A stretch of 64,000 nucleotides of DNA from Candidatus Adlerbacteria bacterium (GTDB lineage Bacteria > Patescibacteriota > Minisyncoccia > Phycocordibacterales > SBAW01): contig CAINNF010000023.1 of assembly GCA_903851045.1 (NCBI GenBank), forward strand, positions 202 to 64,201, in the 5' to 3' direction. Positions 30,535 to 61,529 of this stretch are shown one piece after another; positions within the stretch are counted from its first letter, which is position 1, and every line of letters starts with the position of its first letter. Under the pieces are notes generated by a model. It was not told where the DNA came from. It worked only from the letters and a program-made list of their open reading frames with translations, and made no database searches. Both the position numbers and the translations under genes were made by a program.

Positions 30535-30623
30535 GGAGAGGTGCCAGAGCGGTCGAATGGAGCAACCTGCTAAGTTGTTGACTGGGTAACCGGTCCGAGG
30601 GTTCGAATCCCTCCCTCTCCGCA
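30535..30623 (+). tRNA. tRNA-Ser (GCT)
   Basis: Type II tRNA: GGAGAGG acceptor, D stem CCA/TGG, anticodon arm GCAAC-CTGCTAA-GTTGT (anticodon GCT), long variable arm, T arm GAGGG-TTCGAAT-CCCTC. CCA is not encoded. Confidence 0.85.
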
Positions 30624-34507: not shown

Positions 34508-35077
34508 ATGCTACGTGTTCTTGTCGTGTGTTTCGTGCTTTTTGACGGGGCTTCTCCATGCCTCGCCAAAGACATACACGGAACGACCACGCAGGCAACT
34601 GTGGGAACGAAAGTTAGAGCGAATTCGAGTTACTACGACGAACGAGGGAAGCTGTTGGCCGATGGCACCTGCTTCCAGGACGTCGTAGAAGTTGCCGCAG
34701 GTTCACCGACACTGCTTCATACTATCGTTCGGGTTGAAAATCCAGAGACGGGTGCGGTCATCGGGCGCGTATACATCAGGGATGTACACGGCTCCTGCCC
34801 ACAAGGTGACGTGTGTCTAGACCTGACACGATCAGCTGCTCGACAATTGGACCTTCTTGAAAGAGGGAGAATGCGACTCACCGCGACGGTCGTGGGATAC
34901 TTCCCCGCCGAACACCACCAAGAACATGCGTGTGGACCGACACACACTCGCACGACACGTTCCCAACCTCAGCACCGCCCCAGACCATCGGGGCGGATTT
35001 TTTTGACCCCGTCTCCCCTACTCGGTCGTCGCTTCGGCGAAATGCAAGAGTCGCAGGAATCGAAACAGTCGAAGTAA
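34508..35077 (+). CDS. secreted RlpA-like double-psi beta-barrel (DPBB) protein
   Basis: Signal peptide MLRVLVVCFVLFDGASPCLA. DPBB-like core (YYDERGKLLADGT...VIGRVYIRDVHGSCPQGDVCLDLTRSAARQL). Low-complexity C-tail. Confidence 0.5.
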   Translation: MLRVLVVCFVLFDGASPCLAKDIHGTTTQATVGTKVRANSSYYDERGKLLADGTCFQDVVEVAAGSPTLLHTIVRVENPETGAVIGRVYIRDVHGSCPQGDVCLDLTRSAARQLDLLERGRMRLTATVVGYFPAEHHQEHACGPTHTRTTRSQPQHRPRPSGRIFLTPSPLLGRRFGEMQESQESKQSK

Positions 35078-35395
35078 TCGCAACGCTTGCGTGAGCGGTG
35101 TCGTGATAGGAATGGCCGCCAACAGTTCCCACCAACGAGCCTTGAAGAACTTCTTTCGCTTTTTGGCCATCAGAAACTTGAACGCGAACTCTCCAAGGAA
35201 TACCATCGCGATACACAGGTCGACCAGATCGAACACCTGCGTCTGTTCCTCCGACAGCGTCGTCGTGAACTCGAGGAACAACAACAGCGCGCTGATGAGC
35301 GCCAAGGTCACCATTGCACCTTCGATCCACCATGCGGTTTTTACACGCCTCATCTTCTTCAGCGCGCGCGACTTCCACTTCCCTCTGTGTGCCAT
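35018..35395 (-). CDS. short membrane protein resembling an isolated voltage-sensor (S1-S4) fragment
   Basis: 125 aa. Two to three TM helices, then LRLLRLFRFLRLL with Arg at every third position, like an S4 helix. The 3' end overlaps the convergent gene by 60 nt. Confidence 0.4.
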   Translation of the reverse strand: MAHRGKWKSRALKKMRRVKTAWWIEGAMVTLALISALLLFLEFTTTLSEEQTQVFDLVDLCIAMVFLGEFAFKFLMAKKRKKFFKARWWELLAAIPITTPLTQALRLLRLFRFLRLLHFAEATTE

Positions 35396-35465
35396 AGGTC
35401 TAGAGTACTACCCGCACACAGTATTTGACAAATCTATTTTTTAATATTATAACTTATTGTAAACT

Positions 35466-35494
35466 TGACACTAAGTATCCAAAAGGATACTCTT
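35466..35494 (+). promoter_or_regulatory. sigma70-like promoter upstream of the PP2C/kinase/pncA/vWA/pncB operon
   Basis: TTGACA, 17-nt spacer, TACTCT, in an AT-rich leader. A perfect inverted repeat TTGACgaatataGTCAA (35512..35528) lies just downstream and may be an operator. Confidence 0.35.
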
Positions 35495-35600
35495 TACTCA
35501 GACATCAAACATGTTGACGAATATAGTCAAATGTTGTAAAAGAAAGCCTGTTCCTTGAGAACTGAATACCCATTGCAACAACACACAAAGGTTCACGGCC

Positions 35601-36392
35601 ATGGCCCAACGTCTGCGTCTCAGGCGCGCTACCAAGCACGGCAGTAACCACATCCGTCTCGGTTTCAACAACCAGGATGCAGCTGAAGCCCAAACGTTCG
35701 CTATCCCCTCGCGGGGTCAGGCGTACTACGTCGGGCTCGTCTCTGACGGATGTACCGGGAACCCGATGTGGAGCCACAACGAAGTCGGCGCGAGTTTGCT
35801 CACGCTCTATGCGTACCGGCGGATCCAAGAACTGGTGTGCTCCGGCATATCACTCAGCGATATCCCGAAGGTGCTCTATCCGAGTTGCACGGAGTTCCTG
35901 CTCGACCTGATGGGCAAAGTAATGCCCTCACATGTCGTATGGAAATATCCGACGCCACCCAAAGGACGCGACACCTGGAGCGGCCAAACGCGCTTCAAGA
36001 ACGATTACCTTTCGGCCACCCTCGTCGGCTTTATAACTGATGGGGAGCAGCTGGTGGTCTTCTCGGCTGGTGATGGGATTATCCTCGTGAATGACGAAGT
36101 GACCATCATCGACCAGAACGACCTTCCCGAATACCTGTCGGTCTCGATCAACGACCCGAACCAAGGCTTTGCCGTTTCAACCAGAGCTTTTGCCGAGGTG
36201 CGACGGCTCGCCATCATGACCGACGGCCTGAAAGGGCTTGTCGGTGACACGCGGTTCGTAGCGAGCATGTTCGGTTCGGAGCACGAGAATCCCTTGGCGC
36301 TCCAGTTCCTCTTGAACCGTACGTTCAATGCTACACCCAACCTGATGAGCGACGACTGCACGGTCGTCACACTCGAGCGGGAGGACGAATAG
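35601..36392 (+). CDS. PP2C-family Ser/Thr protein phosphatase
   Basis: 263 aa. Motifs GFNNQDAAEA (metal-binding Asp), VSDGCTG (DGxGG-like), FSAGDGIIL, MTDGL. Stop TAG abuts the kinase ATG. Confidence 0.7.
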   Translation: MAQRLRLRRATKHGSNHIRLGFNNQDAAEAQTFAIPSRGQAYYVGLVSDGCTGNPMWSHNEVGASLLTLYAYRRIQELVCSGISLSDIPKVLYPSCTEFLLDLMGKVMPSHVVWKYPTPPKGRDTWSGQTRFKNDYLSATLVGFITDGEQLVVFSAGDGIILVNDEVTIIDQNDLPEYLSVSINDPNQGFAVSTRAFAEVRRLAIMTDGLKGLVGDTRFVASMFGSEHENPLALQFLLNRTFNATPNLMSDDCTVVTLEREDE

Positions 36393-38345
36393 ATGTATCG
36401 AATAGATACGACGGAATACCAAGAAGACCGGCGGGTGAAACTAGGAGGTGGTTCGGAGGGTACGGTCTACGCCTTCCCTGCGGATCCGCTCGATTGCGTA
36501 AAACTCTTCCATCCTCCAGAAAAAGGAAACAAGGAGGCGGCAACAATCGCCGCCTATCGCGCACGGAAGATCGAGGGCATCCTCAAGCTTCCGATCACGC
36601 TGCCTGAGCAGTTCATTCTGCCAAAGGCAGCAGCCCACGATGCGAACGGCGGGGTGACTGGCTTCCTCATGCGGCGCGTACCTGCACACTATGGCAAGAT
36701 AAAGTTGCTCCTAGAATCGCGATTCCGTACCGACTACCAAATCGGTCTGCGCGAGATAAGCCGATTGTTCGCGGATATTCTCGACGATCTTGCGCTCGTG
36801 CACACTTCGAACATAGTTGTCGGCGACATAAACGCAGGCAGCATCATGATCGATCCAAAGCTCGCGCGCGCGTGGGTAGATGCGGATTCCTGGAGCTATC
36901 CGGGGTTCCCTTCCCTCGCAACGACCGAACTCTTCTGCCACCCGGACCTCTATCCGAACATTGGTGGTAGCGGCACGTTCGTAAGGCACCAACCACACCA
37001 CGATCGGTTTTCGATCGCGATCATGTATGTGCTGATGGCAATCCACGGTGCACACCCGTTCCGCATGGGGCTGCATCCTCAGTACAGCAGCTTGCAGGAT
37101 AGGACGCGCCAAAAGCTCACCATCTTCGACCAAAGCGTCCAATACCCGGCATATCTGCCTAAGCGTGAGATTCTCAGCGACGAGCTGATCAACACGCTTT
37201 TGCAGGTTCTCACCCGCACAACCAACGAACCGATCCCGACCGACCTTCTTCGTACGTTCGCTCACACGGTGGTGGTGTGCGCCAACTGCGGCGCGCAATA
37301 TCATCCATCTCGCAAGCACTGCCCCCAGTGCCACACGACGACCGCGATCGACATCGGCAAGCTCACCAAACTCACCATCGACGACGCCTACTTCACCACG
37401 CGCGGTACGATCCTCTTCGTACAGTCGGTCGGTACCGAACTTCGTGTTATCGTGCGCGTCGGAAACAGCATCGAGATCGTATGTGCGAGCGACACCAATC
37501 AATCGCACACGATACGAACCAGTCTCGCAGCCATACCGGGCGCTGCCTACCGCTTCTTCGACACCTACCTCGCCGTCTGCACGAACCCGTTCGCACCGTC
37601 ACCAGTACACATCACAGTGTATCGGCTCAACGGCACAAGATTGGATCGTGTAACTCAGACGTCGACCGGAAGTCTTGAGAACGCAGCGGCATTGTTCGAC
37701 ACGTCGTCTCGGTTCTTATATCGCACGGCAGGTAACACCCTACTGTGCAGCCGAGTCTTCGGCGCAACGACACTCGACGAGCCGGTCATGCAAGTCTTCG
37801 GCTCGCAGACATGGTTCACCGTTGATCACGCGCCAGCGAATGCTCACGAGGTGATCTTCGGCTACGACCGAGCGCTCAGGGACTGGCAGTGGTTCGTCGT
37901 CCGCGGCAACAAGGACGGCGACCGCTTCGAGCACCATATCGCTCCGGTGACGACGCTGCGTAGCGGCGAGAAACTCGTCGACTTCGCAGTGTACTTCAAC
38001 GCAGACTCGGTGCTGCTGGTGCGCTCGACACTCTATCGTGGTATCGGACATGTCCGGTACGCGGTGATCGGTTTCGAGGGTACGGTGCGCCTTGAGCGCA
38101 TGCTCACCTCGAAGGATACCGCCTACGCATACTGGGAACATGTTTCCGGAAAGCTCTATCAGGCGACCGGGGTCGTACACGTGATGCCCGACGGACTCGT
38201 CAAACACACGTTCGCGACCGACACCTATGAATTGCTTGTCGGTACAAAAAACGTCGCGGCCCAGTCGGATATTCTGATCAAGCTCGACAGCGGCGTAGGC
38301 ATCATCAAGAACAGGAGTATCACACGCTTCTCGAAAAAGAAGTGA
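36393..38345 (+). CDS. Ser/Thr protein-kinase-like protein with internal Zn-ribbon and C-terminal beta-rich domain
   Basis: Gly-rich loop LGGGSEGTVY. Lys in VKLF. Catalytic-loop-like HTSNIVVGDINAGSIMID. DADS (DFG-like). C-x2-C-x11-C-x2-C ribbon (CANCG...CPQC). Roughly 300-aa C-terminal domain. Confidence 0.65.
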   Translation: MYRIDTTEYQEDRRVKLGGGSEGTVYAFPADPLDCVKLFHPPEKGNKEAATIAAYRARKIEGILKLPITLPEQFILPKAAAHDANGGVTGFLMRRVPAHYGKIKLLLESRFRTDYQIGLREISRLFADILDDLALVHTSNIVVGDINAGSIMIDPKLARAWVDADSWSYPGFPSLATTELFCHPDLYPNIGGSGTFVRHQPHHDRFSIAIMYVLMAIHGAHPFRMGLHPQYSSLQDRTRQKLTIFDQSVQYPAYLPKREILSDELINTLLQVLTRTTNEPIPTDLLRTFAHTVVVCANCGAQYHPSRKHCPQCHTTTAIDIGKLTKLTIDDAYFTTRGTILFVQSVGTELRVIVRVGNSIEIVCASDTNQSHTIRTSLAAIPGAAYRFFDTYLAVCTNPFAPSPVHITVYRLNGTRLDRVTQTSTGSLENAAALFDTSSRFLYRTAGNTLLCSRVFGATTLDEPVMQVFGSQTWFTVDHAPANAHEVIFGYDRALRDWQWFVVRGNKDGDRFEHHIAPVTTLRSGEKLVDFAVYFNADSVLLVRSTLYRGIGHVRYAVIGFEGTVRLERMLTSKDTAYAYWEHVSGKLYQATGVVHVMPDGLVKHTFATDTYELLVGTKNVAAQSDILIKLDSGVGIIKNRSITRFSKKK

Positions 38346-38395
38346 CTTGCTACAGCCTTACGTCTACCCACCACCCCGTATAAGGAACAACGACC

Positions 38396-39466
38396 ATGAG
38401 TCAGATCTCTGTGATCATCGCCGACCACGCCCCGCTCGTGTATACACCGAAGTTCTGGGACCCTGCGAAGGCGTACCAGGACTTCAAGCCCGCCCTCGAA
38501 GGGGCGTATACGGAAGGCGTCGAATACGCCCGAAAGCACGCTCTGGAACCTGCACATTCGCTTATCGCACGCGGCATCGGCCATGCCGCATGGCTCACCG
38601 ACCTGCAGCAGGACTTCCGTGACAACGGACGTCTGCCCGTGAAAGGAACCGACACCGCCGTGCTGCGCACGTGCGTCCGGCTCCTGAACGGTACGGTCTC
38701 CGGCTACTTTGCTGGCGTCATTGAGTCTCGTGATGGCCACCCCGGCCAGCATATCTCGTATGACATCTACTGGCGCGATCAGCAAGGCAACGCCCTTGAT
38801 CTGCGCCAACATGGCAACGCCGCATGTCTCACGCTTGTCGATGAACAAAAGGCAGTGTTCAAGGCCTATGGCTTCAATGCCAATGGCCCGTACGACATCG
38901 GCTACTTCCAGCCTCGCTTCGATGCCGCGCCGCCGAGAAACCCAAACGTTCCCGACCGTTCGGCCGTGAGCTACTGGAAACATCTCCAAGCGACCGGCCA
39001 AGGCGACATCTGGGCGTTCACTGTCCACTGCAAGCTCGGCACCGACGGCGCCAACGTGCACCCACTCCTCTTGGAGGTGCTGGCGTTCATCGAAGGCGCG
39101 CTGTCGATGCAGGAGACTATCGTCGCCAAAGGGCATATCAGCACGACCGACTGGTTCGGCGCGTTCGAACCCTGCTGGCCTGATGCCGGCCACCCACAAG
39201 GGGGTCTGCAGAAGGCAATCATCGACGGCTTCAAGCCCTTCGTGACTGTGGAGGCATTCGGCGTTGCCGAGGACTTCTGCGTCTACCACGGCAAGCGGCA
39301 AGCGATGCTCTATCTGCAAGGCACCGAGCACTTCGCAAAGCTCCGCTTCGTCACTGACGGCACCGCTGCGATCATCCCGAACGCAGCGCATGTGATCGCC
39401 CAGAACGAACTGGCGCGCAAAGGTGGCATCAAGTTCATCACCCACGACGCACCCTTGGCAGCGTAG
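38396..39466 (+). CDS. pncA: nicotinamidase / isochorismatase-family hydrolase with ~140-aa N-terminal extension
   Basis: C-terminal 210 aa carry PncA-like motifs: LTLVDEQ (Asp), IWAFTVHCKLGTDGANVHPLL (WPxHCV-like), IVAKG (Lys), GVAEDFCV (catalytic Cys). Confidence 0.6.
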   Translation: MSQISVIIADHAPLVYTPKFWDPAKAYQDFKPALEGAYTEGVEYARKHALEPAHSLIARGIGHAAWLTDLQQDFRDNGRLPVKGTDTAVLRTCVRLLNGTVSGYFAGVIESRDGHPGQHISYDIYWRDQQGNALDLRQHGNAACLTLVDEQKAVFKAYGFNANGPYDIGYFQPRFDAAPPRNPNVPDRSAVSYWKHLQATGQGDIWAFTVHCKLGTDGANVHPLLLEVLAFIEGALSMQETIVAKGHISTTDWFGAFEPCWPDAGHPQGGLQKAIIDGFKPFVTVEAFGVAEDFCVYHGKRQAMLYLQGTEHFAKLRFVTDGTAAIIPNAAHVIAQNELARKGGIKFITHDAPLAA

Positions 39467-39476
39467 GCTCGAAGAC

Positions 39477-39502
39477 CGCCAGCGGCACAAGTGCCGCTGG
39501 CG
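39477..39502 (+). other. perfect GC-rich palindromic hairpin between pncA-like and vWA genes
   Basis: cgccagcggcac-aa-gtgccgctggcg (12 bp). Not followed by a U-tract. Possible processing or attenuation site, or a protein-binding palindrome. Confidence 0.4.
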
Positions 39503-39538
39503 CCTCTCTCCCGAACGAACAATATAGGAGTACGCCTC

Positions 39539-40381
39539 ATGGCCTCTCAAACGGTTAATCCGACCGATATCGCATCGTTCTTCGCTGATCCTGCCGCAAG
39601 CAACGCCATCACCCTGGGCGCCCAGCAAATCGCTGCACCCGTGGTGAGTGGTCAAGCGATCACCTTCGAAGACCTGTCCCAAGGCGGCGGCATTCGGATC
39701 GTGTTCCTTGTCATCGATGCATCTCCTTCGATGGAGCCGGTCGCGGATCTTCTCCGCGACAGCTTTAACAAGGATTTCATCCCTGCGGTCCAGGATGCTC
39801 GCGCCGACGATATCGCAGTACTGCGCATCGGCGGCCTGGCATTCTCGACGAAGATCACGCCAATCTGGCAGAGCGGCGGAAACGGCTTCCATGCTTTGGA
39901 CCAACTTCCCAAGTTGACCAAGGCAGAATACGACCCCGAACAAGGGTGGGGCACCGCACTACACAAGGCGATCCTCACCGGCACCGCAACTGCCGTCAGC
40001 TATGCGGCTCTCCTGCGCGCCCAGATGGGCATCCAACCCGAGGTAGACGTGATCACGTTCACCGACGGTGCCAACAACGAACAGCCTGCAGACCCAGCCG
40101 AGGTTCGCACGGTCATCGTCGGTGGTCGCAGCACTCTCGTGCGACACACGTTCCTGTACTTCCAGACGGACCTGGGAGCAAGGAATCCGCAGAAGATCGG
40201 GCTTGATCTCGGCTATGACGGCGAGAACATCTCGGTCTTCACGAAAAAGCCCAACGAGTCCAGCGAGAGCTATGCGAGCCGCTTCCGTCGCCTGATGCGA
40301 GTCATGAGCCGCGTGTCGGCTTCGCGCGGCGCAAGCGCCACGAACGCAGCCGCTGCCGTCGTGGAAGAAGACGCGGTCTAG
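39539..40381 (+). CDS. von Willebrand factor type A (vWA) domain protein (TerY-like)
   Basis: Start MASQTV (ATG 39539, AGGAG 8 nt upstream). MIDAS DxSxS motif as IDASPSM. FTDGANN. 281 aa. Confidence 0.75.
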   Translation: MASQTVNPTDIASFFADPAASNAITLGAQQIAAPVVSGQAITFEDLSQGGGIRIVFLVIDASPSMEPVADLLRDSFNKDFIPAVQDARADDIAVLRIGGLAFSTKITPIWQSGGNGFHALDQLPKLTKAEYDPEQGWGTALHKAILTGTATAVSYAALLRAQMGIQPEVDVITFTDGANNEQPADPAEVRTVIVGGRSTLVRHTFLYFQTDLGARNPQKIGLDLGYDGENISVFTKKPNESSESYASRFRRLMRVMSRVSASRGASATNAAAAVVEEDAV

Positions 40382-40550
40382 TTCAACATTGCGATGGGTA
40401 TGATCGGCGCTCCGTAAGGAGATGAGTCGAGACACGTTCTACACACTTCGGGGGAGGTCACTGACCTCCCCCTCTTTATAAGGCGCCTGGACCCTTCGGG
40501 CGTCGTTAGAGAAGTTCTTTATCACTCACACAACAACAGGAAACCATCCG

Positions 40551-41909
40551 ATGACCGACTTCGTTGGACGTGTACTGCGACCCGAGCGAGACAACTGGGT
40601 CATCCGGTCGCTCCTCCATATAGACTTCTACAAGTTCACGATGGGACTGTTCATCTACCGATACTTCCGTGGTGTCGAGGTGACGTTTGCGTTCATCAAC
40701 CGTCACCTGCACATTCCGCTCGCACGCATCGTCGATGAAATAGAACTGCGGCGACAGCTTGACCATGCGCGTACGCTCATAATCCAGCATGTGGACCTCT
40801 TCTTCCTGCGGAGCATGGACGTCTTCGGATATCCTATGTTCCCGCCGGACTACCTCGAGTTCCTCATGCAGCTGCGACTCGGCACGTACAAGCTGGAACG
40901 TGTCGGCGACCAATATCGCCTCACATTCACCGGCCCCTGGGAGGTAGTCACCTTTTGGGAAACGATCGCACTGTCGATCATCACCGAGCTCTTCTATCGC
41001 ACACTCATGGAGAGCATGACGGAAACGCAGCTCAACGTACTGTTCGGTCGCATGTACGACAAGCTCTACCGAAAGCTGGAGCGTTTGGCGACAAGACCGT
41101 GGATTCGGTTCGCGGACTTCAGCACTCGGCGACACTTTTCTCGCCTGTGGCAGCGTACCGCCGTTATAATGGCTCGCGAGATGGTCCCGACGCAGTTCAC
41201 AGGTACGAGCAATGCACAACTTGCCCGTGAACTGGACTGCACACCGATCGGCACCTACGCGCACGAACTGCCGATCGTAGTGACCGCGCTCGCTCCCCGG
41301 GCACAGCGAATAACGGCACAATACACGGTGCTACCGCTGTGGGCCAGCTTGTTCCCCAAGGGAGGCTTGCGTATCACTCTGCCGGACACGTACGGGACGA
41401 AGGCATTCTTTAAGCACATGCCGCCCGACTTGGCCGAGCAGGTGGCGCGAGAGTGGCGCGGATTCAGAGATGACTCCGGCGACACTATCGCAAATGGAAG
41501 ACAGTACGTCGGTTGGTATGCGCAATTCGGCATCAACCCAAAGCAAGACGGGAAGATCATGATCCCGTCCGACGGGCTCGATGTTGACCCGATGTTCGCG
41601 ATCGATGATGCTCTTCGCGAACTCATCGGTCTTGCCAACGGCTGGGGAACCAACTTTGGCAACGGCATCGAAGGATGCCATCCTCGACCCGACGACGAAG
41701 CGGTGGTGCGTGGCGAGAAGCTCGGCATCAGCAATGATGTACTCTTCCGTGGTCACTCGTTCATCTGCAAGCCTGCGTTCGCGAACAACAACCCGTGCGT
41801 CAAGATCTCCAACAATCCCAACAAGGCAACGGGCGACAGCTATGCTGTAGCCGAGTACACAAAGGACTTCGGTACGGAAGGCCACGTCGCGCAAGACGTG
41901 CTCGTGTAA
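40551..41909 (+). CDS. pncB: nicotinate phosphoribosyltransferase family protein
   Basis: 452 aa. N-terminal LHIDFYKFTM resembles the NAPRTase TDxYKxTM motif. Size and composition are typical of the PncB family. Confidence 0.65.
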   Translation: MTDFVGRVLRPERDNWVIRSLLHIDFYKFTMGLFIYRYFRGVEVTFAFINRHLHIPLARIVDEIELRRQLDHARTLIIQHVDLFFLRSMDVFGYPMFPPDYLEFLMQLRLGTYKLERVGDQYRLTFTGPWEVVTFWETIALSIITELFYRTLMESMTETQLNVLFGRMYDKLYRKLERLATRPWIRFADFSTRRHFSRLWQRTAVIMAREMVPTQFTGTSNAQLARELDCTPIGTYAHELPIVVTALAPRAQRITAQYTVLPLWASLFPKGGLRITLPDTYGTKAFFKHMPPDLAEQVAREWRGFRDDSGDTIANGRQYVGWYAQFGINPKQDGKIMIPSDGLDVDPMFAIDDALRELIGLANGWGTNFGNGIEGCHPRPDDEAVVRGEKLGISNDVLFRGHSFICKPAFANNNPCVKISNNPNKATGDSYAVAEYTKDFGTEGHVAQDVLV

Positions 41910-41951
41910 GTGCCTACACTCAGATCCCCAAGCGAGATGCTTGGGGATTTT

Positions 41952-42662
41952 TTATATAACTTCGATCTCGATGACCTTGTCGGTCGCGAATCGGTAGAGC
42001 TGCGCGGGACGGAAGGCGCCGCCACTCTTCTTGTTCGGCACCTCTTTGAGGATGTCGAGCTTGAGGATCTTCTTTCGAAAATTGCGCTTGTCGAGGTCGG
42101 CGCCGAGCACCGCCTCGTAGGCGTGTTCGAGTTCGGTGAGCGTGAACTCTTTCGGGAGCAATTTTTGCAGTAGTGTCGTGTAGGTCACGCGCGAGCGAAG
42201 ACGCGCGAGCGCCACCTTCACTATCTCGTCGTGATCATAGGCGAGCCCTCGAGCATCCTTCAGCGGACTCCACCGTGCGTCACTCGTACTCCCCCGCTCC
42301 ACCTCCGAGAGTCGCTCCCACGGCACGAACCCGAGGTACGCGACCGCCACCACGCGACCACGCGGGTCTCGGTCGATCGTGCTAAACGTATACAACTGTT
42401 CGAAGTGTACCTTCGCGGATGCGATACTCGTCTTCGCTTCGATGTGCCGCTTCGCCGCTTCATCCGCGGTCTCCGTGGGGCCAATAAGCCCACCCGGCAG
42501 CGCCTGCATCCCCTGAAAGTGAGTATTCTGCGTCGTGATCAAACGCACCCACAACCGGTCATCATGTAACGAAAAAAGCACCACATCAGTAGCGAGCACC
42601 GCAAACCGTAAGTCTTGTACTTTCATTAGTGTATATTGTACACAACATATGTATTGTGTCAA
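41952..42662 (-). CDS. nrtR: NrtR-type Nudix-related transcriptional regulator
   Basis: Nudix box GGLIGPTETADEAAKRHIEAKT. C-terminal wHTH (LPKEFTLTELEHAYEAVLGADLDKRNFRKKI...RPAQLYRF). Convergent with the end of pncB. A near-consensus promoter with palindromes lies upstream. Confidence 0.65.
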   Translation of the reverse strand: MTQYICCVQYTLMKVQDLRFAVLATDVVLFSLHDDRLWVRLITTQNTHFQGMQALPGGLIGPTETADEAAKRHIEAKTSIASAKVHFEQLYTFSTIDRDPRGRVVAVAYLGFVPWERLSEVERGSTSDARWSPLKDARGLAYDHDEIVKVALARLRSRVTYTTLLQKLLPKEFTLTELEHAYEAVLGADLDKRNFRKKILKLDILKEVPNKKSGGAFRPAQLYRFATDKVIEIEVI

Positions 42663-42729
42663 ATAGAAACCGCCGGGCCCAATGAAGGGTCCCGGCGGGT
42701 AGTGATGCCTACTCGTGCAGGTATCGATA

Positions 42730-43566
42730 CTACGCGGTAATAATACCGCGGGAGATCAGGTGGTCACGCAGGCCCATCGGGTCGTCCTTGTCGACAACAA
42801 TGATGTTACCGAAATGCCGCTCCGCGACCCCAGCGGTTTCGAACGCCGAGAAATTGCCGGCCCGCACCTGCAGTGCCAGATCCTGCGTGACGCGGCCGCT
42901 GCCATTGACCAGAAAGATTGGCCAGCCGCGCTTGGCGCCCAGCATGATCTCGGTCTGGGTGATTGCGCCGCCGTTCCATGCGACGATGTGGGCGCTCTTG
43001 AAGTTGGCGAACTGGATCAGGCGGTCCATCATCGCAAAGTACGATTTCAGGTCGCCGTCCCAGTCCAGCATCGAGTCGCCGTCCTGAACCAGCATAATGC
43101 CGGACATATTCGGCGCTGGCGCGGTGCCGTAGCTGTCCAGTACCAGTCGCGAGTTCCCCTGCAGCGTCGGAATATCGACCAGTGGGGCTGTGCCGAGGGC
43201 AACGCAGCCCGCATTGCGCGGATCCATCGCCAGGAAGCCCGCGGCATCGGTGACCATCAGGTCGACCTGGTCGTTGACGGTTTGGCGCGTCGCGCCGGTA
43301 AAGGCGAGGCCGCGGAACCCTTTGTAAGCGGTCAGAAAGAAGTGAATCATGCCGATCTTGTCGGCCTCATTCATCCCTTTGCAGCCGCCGGTGATGCGAA
43401 CCATCACATGCTTAGCCGCACAGGTAGCCATCAGTTGGAAGTTGGCCGAGACCTCGCCTTGACCGACGAAGAATAGCTTAACCTTGCCGCCCGGCGCGGT
43501 CACCTGGTGAGGGTTCGCGATGGCATTCCGGACAAACTCCGGAAGATCGATAACGTGGGTGTCCAT
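42730..43566 (-). CDS. SLOG/LOG-like Rossmann-fold protein (paralog 1)
   Basis: 278 aa. WNGGAITQTE (GGxGTxxE-like LOG motif). VNGSGR. RITGGC. Hairpin terminator downstream. Confidence 0.45.
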   Translation of the reverse strand: MDTHVIDLPEFVRNAIANPHQVTAPGGKVKLFFVGQGEVSANFQLMATCAAKHVMVRITGGCKGMNEADKIGMIHFFLTAYKGFRGLAFTGATRQTVNDQVDLMVTDAAGFLAMDPRNAGCVALGTAPLVDIPTLQGNSRLVLDSYGTAPAPNMSGIMLVQDGDSMLDWDGDLKSYFAMMDRLIQFANFKSAHIVAWNGGAITQTEIMLGAKRGWPIFLVNGSGRVTQDLALQVRAGNFSAFETAGVAERHFGNIIVVDKDDPMGLRDHLISRGIITA

Positions 43567-43642
43567 TTTCTTGTAGCTTTCCTGTTACATCGGTCGAAAT
43601 GACCGACGGGAGTCACCTCTCTGGCCACCATTGGCAGACAGG

Positions 43643-44419
43643 TTAGGCTATCGCACCAAGCTCGATGAGTTTGGTTCGAATGGATGCACTCGTACGCTCT
43701 ACTACGTGCACGTTTGGATGGTCGGACAGAAACTGTGCATCATTGGCATACTTTTCGGTCGTGCGACCACTGCCGTTGATGAGTAGTACTGGCCAGCCCA
43801 ATTGTGCCCATTGCAGTATCTCTTTTTCGGTGACACCGCCACCGTTGTAGGAGATGAGTAGCTGTTTCCAACCCGCTCCTTGCGAGAGTAGTTGGGCTGC
43901 CTTGCGAGCAAACAGCATCTCGGCATCCCACATCACACCTTGGTCGGCAGATCCTTGGACTACCACACACATATCCTGTTCGGGATGTATCTGTGTGTAA
44001 TATTCCTCACCCGGTTCGTCGTAGACCAATATGCCGGTCCGGACAAGTTGCAGATGTTGGATGTTGCCGTCAATTTCAATGCGTGGCACGACGCCGAGTG
44101 CAACCGTGTTCGGGCATCGTCGTCGAATACAGGGGACTACTTCCGTGATACTCGGGATGACGGTATCGGGGGTATCTTTGCGACGCATTTGTGTGCCGCC
44201 AAAGAGAAATGCTCCCTTAAAGTCACCCCGAAACGCATCCGCGTATAAATCGTACAAACCGTGTGCATCTTGAGGGGTCATGAAGCCACAACCGCCAGTG
44301 ATGCGCACGAGGTAGCGATGTTGCGCCCGAGTAAATTGGACCATGACGGTCGAAGATATCGGATCGCCCGTCCCTTGTATATGCAAGGAGGGACCACAAC
44401 CGTCCAGATAGTTTGTCAC
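43643..44419 (-). CDS. SLOG/LOG-like Rossmann-fold protein (paralog 2)
   Basis: 258 aa. YNGGGVTEKE, INGSGR, RITGGCGFM. Collinear with paralog 1. Confidence 0.45.
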   Translation of the reverse strand: MTNYLDGCGPSLHIQGTGDPISSTVMVQFTRAQHRYLVRITGGCGFMTPQDAHGLYDLYADAFRGDFKGAFLFGGTQMRRKDTPDTVIPSITEVVPCIRRRCPNTVALGVVPRIEIDGNIQHLQLVRTGILVYDEPGEEYYTQIHPEQDMCVVVQGSADQGVMWDAEMLFARKAAQLLSQGAGWKQLLISYNGGGVTEKEILQWAQLGWPVLLINGSGRTTEKYANDAQFLSDHPNVHVVERTSASIRTKLIELGAIA

Positions 44420-44590
44420 GAACCCTCCTTTTGTTTTGTGGGTATTTTTCGAATTACTCGAATTGACACGTAAAAGTCAAAGAACACAAGCAAAATTATA
44501 CTCTAATAGAAAATATATGTCAATACCTCGTGGGGGTCGCTTTTAAGTCAGTGTTCTGGTTGTTTAATGTATATTATAGGGACAAAGAAA

Positions 44591-45178: not shown

Positions 45179-45264
45179 GGAGAGATGGATGAGTGGTTTA
45201 AATCAACAGTTTACTAAACTGTCGGCCCGTCAAGGGCCCGCGAGTTCGAATCTCGCTCTCTCCG
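45179..45264 (+). tRNA. type II (Ser-like) tRNA with apparent anticodon ACT
   Basis: GGAGAGA acceptor, D stem GAT/ATC, anticodon arm ACAGT-TTACTAA-ACTGT, variable arm GGCCC-GTCAA-GGGCC, T arm GCGAG-TTCGAAT-CTCGC. The loop differs from the Ser-GCT loop (CTGCTAA) by G34 to A. Confidence 0.7.
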
Positions 45265-45307
45265 CAGGAACGTGCATGGTGTTATCTAACCGTGTCCCGT
45301 TACAACC

Positions 45308-61415: not shown

Positions 61416-61457
61416 ATTCTGAGCTATAGTGGCTACGAGTTCCCAGCGGGCGCGTAG

Positions 61458-61529
61458 CTCAGCGGTAGAGCCGTCGTCTTATACACGACTGGTCGAAGGT
61501 TCGATCCCTTCCGCGCCCACTTTTTTATC
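61458..61529 (+). tRNA. tRNA-Ile (TAT)
   Basis: GGGCGCG acceptor, D arm GCTC-AGCGGTA-GAGC, anticodon arm GTCGT-CTTATAC-ACGAC (anticodon TAT), T arm GAAGG-TTCGATC-CCTTC, discriminator A. A T-run follows. CCA is not encoded. Confidence 0.8.

Follow-up and report, generated by a model that had tools for sequence, protein, structure and literature searches.

A conserved TerY-P-like gene cassette with a long-form nicotinamidase and links to NAD salvage in Patescibacteria

The subject of this analysis is a block of four co-directional genes in a 64,000-nucleotide stretch of Candidatus Adlerbacteria DNA (contig CAINNF010000023.1, positions 202 to 64,201; the whole stretch is called the window here), which has a GC content of 50-60%. 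In order, these genes encode a PP2C-type phosphatase, a Ser/Thr-kinase-like protein, a long-form nicotinamidase (PncA-like) and a protein with a von Willebrand factor A (vWA) domain. We hold with high confidence that they form a conserved TerY-P-like cassette of Patescibacteria that is linked to the salvage of nicotinamide adenine dinucleotide (NAD). The best explanation of the cassette, which we favour with moderate confidence, is a TerY-P-like phospho-switch that is controlled by the ADP-ribose-responsive repressor NrtR and gates the nicotinamidase in these bacteria. The known parts are the TerY-P triads, defined as vWA + PP2C + kinase-zinc-ribbon (PMC11090510), and the NrtR-regulated pncA units; the new part is the nicotinamidase-centred, NrtR-linked TerY-P-like cassette.

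The comparison of gene order in relatives carries the main finding. DNA of related loci came from a genome collection (9 loci), a metagenome collection (7 loci) and exact-protein look-ups, and the window proteins were mapped onto these loci by tblastn and hidden Markov models. With all four genes pointing the same way and separated by short gaps, the order PP2C>kinase>PncA>vWA recurs in 25 of 25 related contigs wherever the contig covers it, with no exception. It is kept in 20 distinct relatives at 30-60% identity, in the contig of a kinase homolog at 27% identity (P0069), and in the very distant loci L029-L032, where PncA identity goes down to ~20% (kinase profile E 5e-62 for L030/L031). The conserved unit is, on solid grounds, the four-gene cassette PP2C>kinase>long-form PncA>vWA, and the association of vWA, PP2C and a kinase with zinc ribbon with NAD salvage is conserved rather than a one-off of this genome. 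An initial annotation, made from the letters of this DNA, had already proposed the association; the eight open reading frames (ORFs) that it listed were all located exactly where it put them, and every domain assignment that it made (PP2C, kinase, nicotinamidase, vWA, PncB, NrtR and a SLOG pair) was upheld.

The genes for PncB, NadE and NrtR recur near the cassette but vary from locus to locus, and are not fixed parts of it. Within 10 kb of it, nrtR occurs in 10 of the 20 mapped relatives and also in the contigs of P0069 and L030, and pncB occurs in six of these relatives and in the contig of P0069, in the several arrangements collected in Table 1; neither gene lies near the cassette in L007, L013 and L014. 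Additionally, L026 (4763-6977) has, beside the cassette, genes for a Nudix protein and for a DAGK_cat protein whose Pfam matches to NAD_kinase and PTP-NADK are faint, and nrtR followed by a PRK-family kinase lies 4 kb downstream of it in L025 (18237-19841). The clustering of NAD-related genes near the cassette in these two loci suggests that the NrtR regulon of these bacteria is wider.

There is strong support for the prediction that the third cassette gene encodes a nicotinamidase with intact catalytic and metal residues. Among nine PncA orthologs, D69, K245, C295, D113, H115, H119 and the pair H211-C212 are invariant, and D69/K245/C295 together with D113/H115/H211 are still invariant in PncA relatives at ~20% identity; H119, a metal-ligand His in some PncAs, is kept only in the window's clade and is lost in distant members. 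When the family profile was compared with the Protein Data Bank (PDB), all five matches were nicotinamidases (2wt9 at 2.4e-7, 29iv, 1ilw, 2h0r and 3pl1). The NCBIfam model PRK11609 matched the protein partially (E 1.7e-7, 31 bits against a cut-off of 174), and the Pfam Isochorismatase model gave no match at E <= 0.01. The nicotinamidase alignment spans just two segments of the query, residues 52-125 and 197-296. Because the alignment to 2wt9 has this coverage, the extra length of the protein is laid out as an N-terminal extension of ~55-60 aa plus an insertion of ~70 aa that separates the DxH metal motif from the HC motif. The PncA-like domain of the initial annotation was borne out; its single 140-aa N-terminal extension was not.

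About one in ten of the long-form PncA homologs has an extra, well-conserved N-terminal domain of ~235 aa, for a total of 580-600 aa (L015:11164-11910, L028:10001-10762, P0129, P0130, P0141, P0154, P0159, P0165, P0171, P0218 and P0220). The motifs of this domain are GRxIRGKKPEDF, TDDPxR, YMTxER, FLYF[TS]VHLRE and GDGYT; it had no match among Pfam, NCBIfam or PDB sequences and has no copy in the window. The PncAs that carry it remain inside the PP2C-kinase-PncA-vWA cassette. These long homologs were considered as PncA-vWA fusions, which would have demonstrated an interaction, and rejected as such, the extra domain being unrelated to vWA. In L008 (4746-5723), a single 325-aa ORF joins PncA-like residues 1-286 directly to vWA residues 232-278, which is either a deletion that destroys both genes or an assembly artefact.

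The PP2C gene is the first of the cassette in all relatives, and the kinase gene adjoins it at every locus; in the window the PP2C stop TAG directly abuts the kinase ATG (36390-36395), as noted from the start. Direct Pfam and NCBIfam scans gave no useful match for the kinase, vWA or PncA proteins beyond the partial nicotinamidase match. Structure prediction was needed because these scans and the profile searches of PDB sequences were insignificant for the kinase and vWA proteins. The AlphaFold2 model of the kinase protein, based on 67 sequences, reached a mean predicted local distance difference test score (pLDDT) of 87.6 and a predicted template modelling (TM) score of 0.85, and it comprises a kinase domain (residues ~1-290), a CxxC-x10-CxxC zinc ribbon (296-313) and a beta-propeller (~327-650). 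In Foldseek searches of the PDB, the N-terminal half matched eukaryote-like Ser/Thr kinases (Myt1, Aurora, PKA and ASK1; TM scores, normalised to the target, 0.5-0.67), and the C-terminal half matched the seven-bladed beta-propeller of the clathrin terminal domain. The ~300-aa C-terminal domain of the initial annotation has thus received a fold, and its kinase-like call is upheld by the fold and by invariant catalytic residues, though there is no Pfam kinase match. Among the 67 kinase homologs, G18, G20, K37, D145 and D163 are invariant and N147 nearly so, and all four zinc-ribbon cysteines (C296, C299, C310 and C313) are invariant; profile matches to zinc ribbons were weak, and the spacing between the CxxC pairs is ten residues, not the eleven first counted.

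This kinase family is large. In a set of 1.84 billion proteins it has 414 cluster representatives at E <= 1e-30, mostly 600-660 aa long and matched end to end. Full-length homologs number 68 at 42-50% identity, plus P0069 at 27%, and they carry labels such as Patescibacteria and Saccharimonadales. The best whole-chain Foldseek matches of the model are to LRRK2 (kinase + WD40), which likewise has a kinase fold followed by a beta-propeller that presumably binds a ligand or partner. Unlike LRRK2, the cassette kinase has neither ROC/COR domains nor a membrane segment, its zinc ribbon joins the two domains, its catalytic loop reads GD-x-N, and the sequence similarity is insignificant. Kinase-WD40 proteins are also found in bacteria, as the PkwA-type kinases of actinobacteria. 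Over its whole kinase-plus-propeller length, the model is also matched by A0A8S5RYX0, a 550-aa protein from an uncultured myovirus (15% identity, Foldseek E 3.8e-20), and phrog_37888 (646 positions) matches the kinase N-terminus at 2.6e-6; on the strength of these matches, the kinase-plus-propeller architecture exists on phage-annotated contigs too.

The vWA assignment was confirmed by structure and conservation alike. The AlphaFold model of this protein has a pLDDT of 91.2, and its Foldseek matches are almost all vWA domains, including those of CMG2/ANTXR2, C2a, the LFA-1 integrin I domain and TRAP. The residues of the metal-ion-dependent adhesion site (MIDAS), D60-x-S62-x-S64, T139 and D176, are invariant. 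The protein has 49 homologs, and 15 of 48 family members match Pfam VWA (PF00092). Outside the domain, its N-terminal part has a conserved FFxDPDASS motif, and its C-terminal tail is acidic, of the form [DE][DE][DE]-hydrophobic-hydrophobic.

The link of the cassette to NrtR comes from its upstream DNA. A GTGTA-N5-TACAC palindrome with conserved flanks precedes both the nrtR and the PP2C genes in L010, L012, L015 and L016. From ten such sites a symmetrised 21-bp position weight matrix was built, with the consensus TTAGTGTATAATATACACTAA; the flanks had to be included because the core alone, at two mismatches, matches 18 times in the window. The 21-bp palindrome, of the form TTAGTGTA-N5-TACACTAA, lies 86-318 nt upstream of PP2C in all 10 loci that have nrtR within 10 kb and is absent upstream of PP2C from all 10 loci that do not. 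A site of at least 17 bits was present in nine of 20 PP2C upstream regions, the L010 site lying further out at -318, whereas 0.0011 such sites would be expected by chance in 250 bp of upstream-like sequence and ~0.013 in 64 kb of window-like sequence. Overall, 13 sites fall in 7.9 kb of PP2C-upstream DNA and 17 in 414 kb elsewhere, a ~40-fold enrichment. The sites of L017, L022, L025, L026, L027 and the window took no part in matrix building. NrtR operators have been described as 21-bp palindromes with a GT-N7-AC core that overlap the promoter or lie between promoter and start codon, and ADP-ribose abolishes the binding of NrtR to them (Rodionov et al. 2008, PMC2330246); the palindrome upstream of the cassette fits this rule. 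The cassette is therefore a predicted member of the NrtR regulon in about half of the sampled lineages.

In the window, the candidate operator begins right after the first of two candidate cassette promoters and overlaps the TTGACA of the second (Table 1). The first had been missed by the promoter tool because its rule accepts only -10 hexamers that end in T. All the repeats of the initial annotation are present, namely the inverted repeat with 12-nt arms 3' of PncA, GTGTA-N5-TACAC, the palindrome at the nrtR promoter and the leader repeat TTGAC-N7-GTCAA. The last of these did not gain a conserved regulatory role, the relevant candidate operator being the one at 35454-35474. Neither this repeat nor a second one in the leader is conserved in the leaders of other loci or explained by the NrtR motif. 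Both were also considered as an RNA element, which was rejected for lack of an Rfam match and because folding did not exceed that of shuffled sequences (z = -0.77); a second regulator might bind them. The inverted repeat between PncA and vWA could be an element of mRNA stability or processing. NrtR itself was correctly identified by its NUDIX and NrtR_WHD domains (NCBIfam NF050029 at 8.9e-42, below the cut-off), and its most likely start is the ATG at 42626 rather than the TTG at 42662.

The initial annotation had also placed five genes, with pncB as the fifth, behind one promoter. This is doubtful because a GC-rich hairpin with a T-rich tail divides vWA from pncB, and of the proposed operon the PP2C>kinase>PncA>vWA block stands, whereas pncB is a variable neighbour rather than a fixed fifth member. 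The hairpin is probably the 3' end of the cassette transcript, as judged from its sequence; comparable hairpins (-19 to -30 kcal/mol, followed by a T run) lie 3' of vWA in L007, L011, L012, L015 and L027, and terminator-like hairpins at this place were found in six of 17 loci. The promoter scan of the window found no consensus promoter before pncB, which may be expressed either by read-through or from a weak promoter. In the window, pncB and nrtR appear to adjoin the cassette as separate transcription units. The identity of pncB is well supported, both the catalytic and the N-terminal NAPRTase domains being matched, and NCBIfam PRK05321 matches it at 5.5e-94 (315 bits, below the curated cut-off of 379).

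Table 1. Features of the cassette and its surroundings in the window, and arrangements and NrtR sites at related loci
Feature	Position or locus	Strand	Basis or remark
Candidate cassette promoter, TTGACA-17 nt-TATAAC	35425..35453	+	Read by eye
Candidate NrtR operator TTATTGTAAACTTGACACTAA	35454..35474		137 nt upstream of PP2C ATG; 17.2 bits by position weight matrix
Second, weaker cassette promoter candidate	TTGACA 35465-35470 + TACTCT 35488-35493	+	Read by eye
Leader inverted repeat AGTATCC-N4-GGATACT	35475-35492		
Leader inverted repeat TTGAC-N7-GTCAA	35516-35532		
PP2C-type protein phosphatase, 263 aa	35601..36392	+	Pfam PF13672 PP2C_2, E 5.8e-11
Ser/Thr-kinase-like protein	36393..38345	+	AlphaFold2, Foldseek, conserved residues
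Long-form nicotinamidase (PncA-like), 356 aa	38396..39466	+	Invariant triad and metal site, PDB profile matches, partial NCBIfam match
Perfect inverted repeat, 12-nt arms, 2-nt spacer, without T tail	39477..39502	+	Between PncA and vWA
vWA-domain protein, complete MIDAS motif, 280 aa	39539..40381	+	AlphaFold2 model, Foldseek, conserved residues
Intrinsic-terminator-like hairpin, 10 pairs (8 G-C), then TCTTTAT	40450..40472	+	Between vWA and pncB
pncB, nicotinate phosphoribosyltransferase, 452 aa	40551..41909	+	Pfam NAPRTase PF04095 1.7e-23, NAPRTase_N PF17767 9.5e-15
Hairpin terminator	41922..41950		Between convergent pncB and nrtR
nrtR, Nudix-related ADP-ribose-responsive repressor, 224 aa	41952..42626	-	Pfam NrtR_WHD (PF21906) 2.5e-25, NUDIX (PF00293) 1e-10
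nrtR promoter, TTGACA-16 nt-TACAAT	42662..42635	-	Overlapped by NrtR box TTAGTGTATATTGTACACAAC at 42626-42646
Two SLOG (LSDAT_prok-like) paralogs	42730..44419	-	Pfam PF18171
nrtR>cassette	L010, L012, L017		
nrtR<>cassette	L016, L022		
pncB-nrtR<>cassette	L026		Divergent
cassette>nrtR	L015		
nrtR>nadE>pncB>cassette	L027		All co-directional
nrtR>cassette>NAPRTase	P0069 contig		
nrtR>cassette>QRPTase_N protein	L030		
NrtR site	L017, -220 from PP2C ATG		
NrtR sites	L022, -150 and -86 from PP2C ATG		
NrtR site	L025, -159 from PP2C ATG		nrtR 9 kb away
NrtR site	L026, -135 from PP2C ATG		
NrtR site	L027, -156 from PP2C ATG		Separate boxes before pncB (coordinate 7585) and nrtR (coordinate 4790)

Under the explanation that we favour, an NrtR-controlled phospho-switch on the nicotinamidase, the operator motif and the published biology of NrtR suggest that, as NAD is consumed, ADP-ribose would free NrtR from the 21-bp operator and the four genes would be transcribed. 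The nicotinamidase would convert nicotinamide into nicotinate for PncB, NadD and NadE, a chemistry to which its conserved catalytic and metal residues point. The kinase and the PP2C would constitute a reversible switch of the TerY-P type, with the vWA protein as target or adaptor; they would act on the phosphorylation of the vWA protein and/or the nicotinamidase, and the beta-propeller of the kinase, which would be cytoplasmic, may serve together with the zinc ribbon as the signal-input module. Phosphorylation would then decide whether the MIDAS face of the vWA protein binds the nicotinamidase, or its phosphorylated form, and gates it by activation, inhibition or sequestration, a step that we infer from the invariant gene order and the architecture. 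The nicotinamidase would be the output of the switch, and it carries family-specific extensions that are absent from canonical PncA. Its insertions, together with the FFxDPDASS motif and the acidic tail of the vWA protein, are possible docking elements. The phosphorylation-switched, vWA-scaffolded NAD module of the initial annotation survives here in its conserved link between triad and NAD salvage, but without SLOG proteins or fixed pncB membership.

Several observations weigh against this explanation. Neither Pfam nor PDB-sequence profiles gave a significant kinase match, and the catalytic loop is atypical, with GD-x-N in place of HRD-x4-N; for these reasons, kinase activity is assumed from the fold and the conserved residues. 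No PncA-vWA or PncA-kinase fusion was found among the PncA homologs. The NrtR box of the window is the weakest of the set, with 17.2 bits and two core mismatches, and half of the loci have no detectable NrtR box or nearby nrtR, so NrtR control is not universal. Moreover, the one functional test of TerY-P-like triads encountered in the literature concerns anti-phage defence (Gao et al. 2020, as cited in PMC11090510), in favour of a conflict role.

That last point leads to the possibility of an NAD-centred conflict module, in which a TerY-P-type sensor would fire on phage infection or NADase immunity and switch on the nicotinamidase, thereby destroying nicotinamide and denying the phage NAD reconstitution, or else speeding the recovery of host NAD. 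We consider it unlikely. In its favour, the architecture of kinase with zinc ribbon, PP2C and vWA equals that of TerY-P, TerY-P-like modules protect against phages on their own (Gao et al. 2020, via PMC11090510), NrtR responds to ADP-ribose, a product of NAD cleavage (PMC2330246), and the myovirus-annotated protein and phrog_37888 share the kinase-plus-propeller architecture or match its N-terminus. However, the conflict or counter-defence role raised in the initial annotation has gathered no positive evidence. The defence models of PADLOC-DB, which we take to include TerY-P, matched none of the eight window proteins at E <= 0.01 and none of the 48 vWA relatives at E <= 1, and no copy was found among the 2.9 million viral contigs of IMG/VR. 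The cassette's neighbours are housekeeping or NAD genes rather than defence islands. As far down as ~20-30% identity, gene order and sequence have diverged in parallel. Mobility and a patchy distribution are usual for defence cassettes, and neither was seen here, with no formal phyletic test made. Furthermore, the sole recognisable output enzyme is an ordinary salvage enzyme without toxic activity. The fuller version of this scenario, an immune or counter-immune device in which a TerY-P-derived sensor, induced through NrtR and ADP-ribose, switches a nicotinamidase that controls the fate of nicotinamide during phage attack, we regard as rather unlikely. If true, it would extend TerY-P defence to a metabolic effector and to the Candidate Phyla Radiation (CPR)/Patescibacteria, and the conflict scenario in general would link NAD-depletion immunity to the removal of nicotinamide.

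A role in metal sensing or maturation, in which the MIDAS vWA protein would sense or deliver a divalent metal, as proposed for TerY, and the kinase and PP2C would report metal status so that the nicotinamidase becomes loaded or active with the right metal only, is quite unlikely as a separate account, and it is really a sub-variant of the phospho-switch on the nicotinamidase rather than an exclusive rival; it is compatible with the data. PncA is a metalloenzyme whose D/H/H ligands are invariant, the MIDAS motif is fully conserved, and the sensing of metals by a phospho-switch was the original hypothesis for TerY-P (Anantharaman et al. 2012, via PMC11090510). On the other hand, canonical PncA is generally understood to need no accessory factor, and no AAA+ (MoxR-type) partner was found in any locus examined. 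Such AAA+ proteins are the usual companions of vWA maturation factors.

It is very unlikely that the PncA-like enzyme hydrolyses another amide, with the cassette producing or breaking down some other small molecule, and that pncB and nrtR lie nearby by coincidence. The superfamily is broad, the nicotinamidase matches are partial and the Pfam Isochorismatase match is missing at the threshold used, and both the large family-specific insertions, which could reshape the active site, and the loss of H119 in distant members leave some room for such an activity. Yet the PDB yielded nicotinamidases only, the D-K-C triad and the nicotinamidase-specific D-x-H...H-C metal site are invariant, and independent lineages repeatedly show pncB, nadE, nrtR and the NrtR box. 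Finally, chance juxtaposition of unrelated genes is almost certainly wrong: in small, gene-dense genomes tight packing alone means little and unrelated neighbours such as the SLOG genes do occur here, but the identical order in all ~25 diverged contigs refutes it, and the operator is shared as well.

The cassette resembles the TerY-P triad in its MIDAS vWA protein, its PP2C and its Ser/Thr kinase with C-terminal zinc ribbon, all encoded in one tight co-directional cluster, and in the reversible phospho-switch presumed for both. Unlike TerY-P, every member has a nicotinamidase gene inserted after that of the kinase and before that of the vWA protein, and the kinase has an additional beta-propeller after its zinc ribbon. 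Its partners are NAD-salvage genes and NrtR, whereas those of TerY-P are Ter genes, nucleases and restriction systems; TerY-P versions are known as a stand-alone defence system (Gao et al. 2020) and in association with CoCoNuT systems (PMC11090510). With the NrtR-regulated pncA-pncB operons it shares the Nudix and winged-helix repressor NrtR, PncA and PncB as the regulated enzymes, and a 21-bp palindromic operator, its core being GT-N7-AC, which is located at the promoters of nrtR, of pncB (in L027) and of the pncA unit (PMC2330246). In the published NrtR regulons pncA is short and stands alone; here it is a long form of ~340-360 aa, sometimes ~590 aa, always with PP2C and kinase genes upstream and a vWA gene downstream. 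Neither signalling proteins nor a long-form PncA are among the regulon members in the published listings examined (PMC2330246).

The literature searched, with incomplete coverage, yielded no description of this linkage, in agreement with the initial view that it is not a described system. Nor did it yield a TerY-P-type triad that is coupled to a metabolic housekeeping enzyme instead of nucleases, restriction systems or Ter proteins. Many of the ultra-small Patescibacteria that depend on a host are considered to obtain NAD by salvage alone. The cassette would add control by Ser/Thr phosphorylation to the first salvage enzyme, on top of the transcriptional control by NrtR. It also offers a tractable handle on TerY-P triads in general, since the output of a nicotinamidase is easy to assay and the family is large.

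The two SLOG genes next to nrtR are indeed paralogous (30% identity, E 6e-24), as the initial annotation had it, but their membership in the NAD module did not hold. The gene at 43643-44419 scores 29.0 bits with PF18171, above the cut-off of 25.4, and the one at 42730-43566 scores 22.5 bits, below it. The pair has its own promoter (TTGACA-17-TATAAT, 12 of 12 sigma-70-like matches, 44523..44495) and a terminator-like hairpin (42670-42698), and no SLOG homolog occurs in any mapped related locus, for which reasons it is taken as a bystander. The upstream paralog may start either with GTG at 44419 (GVG...) or with ATG at 44344, and gene calls vary between contigs.

Elsewhere in the window, a 125-aa ORF on the reverse strand (35018-35395) matches only the first half of Ion_trans (positions 3-110 of 241) and shares 60 nt with the 3' end of a DPBB-like forward-strand ORF (34508-35077); it could be a truncated channel, a sensor-only protein or a mis-called end. 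In addition to a normal tRNA-Ser(GCT) at 30535-30622, there is a second tRNA-Ser on the forward strand (45179-45265; Rfam tRNA model, 55.9 bits) with the anticodon ACT, which has A at position 34; its anticodon stem (ACAGT/ACTGT) and loop (TTACTAA) have been inspected by eye. The gene is located at one edge of the 44-48 kb stretch, where GC drops to 0.50. Bacteria normally read AGY codons with GCU, and an ACT anticodon is unusual. AUA, in turn, is mostly read in bacteria by a lysidine-modified CAU tRNA. The window encodes a tRNA-Ile with the anticodon TAT (61448-61520, forward strand, 68.8 bits), and this UAU tRNA may tell something about AUA decoding in this organism.

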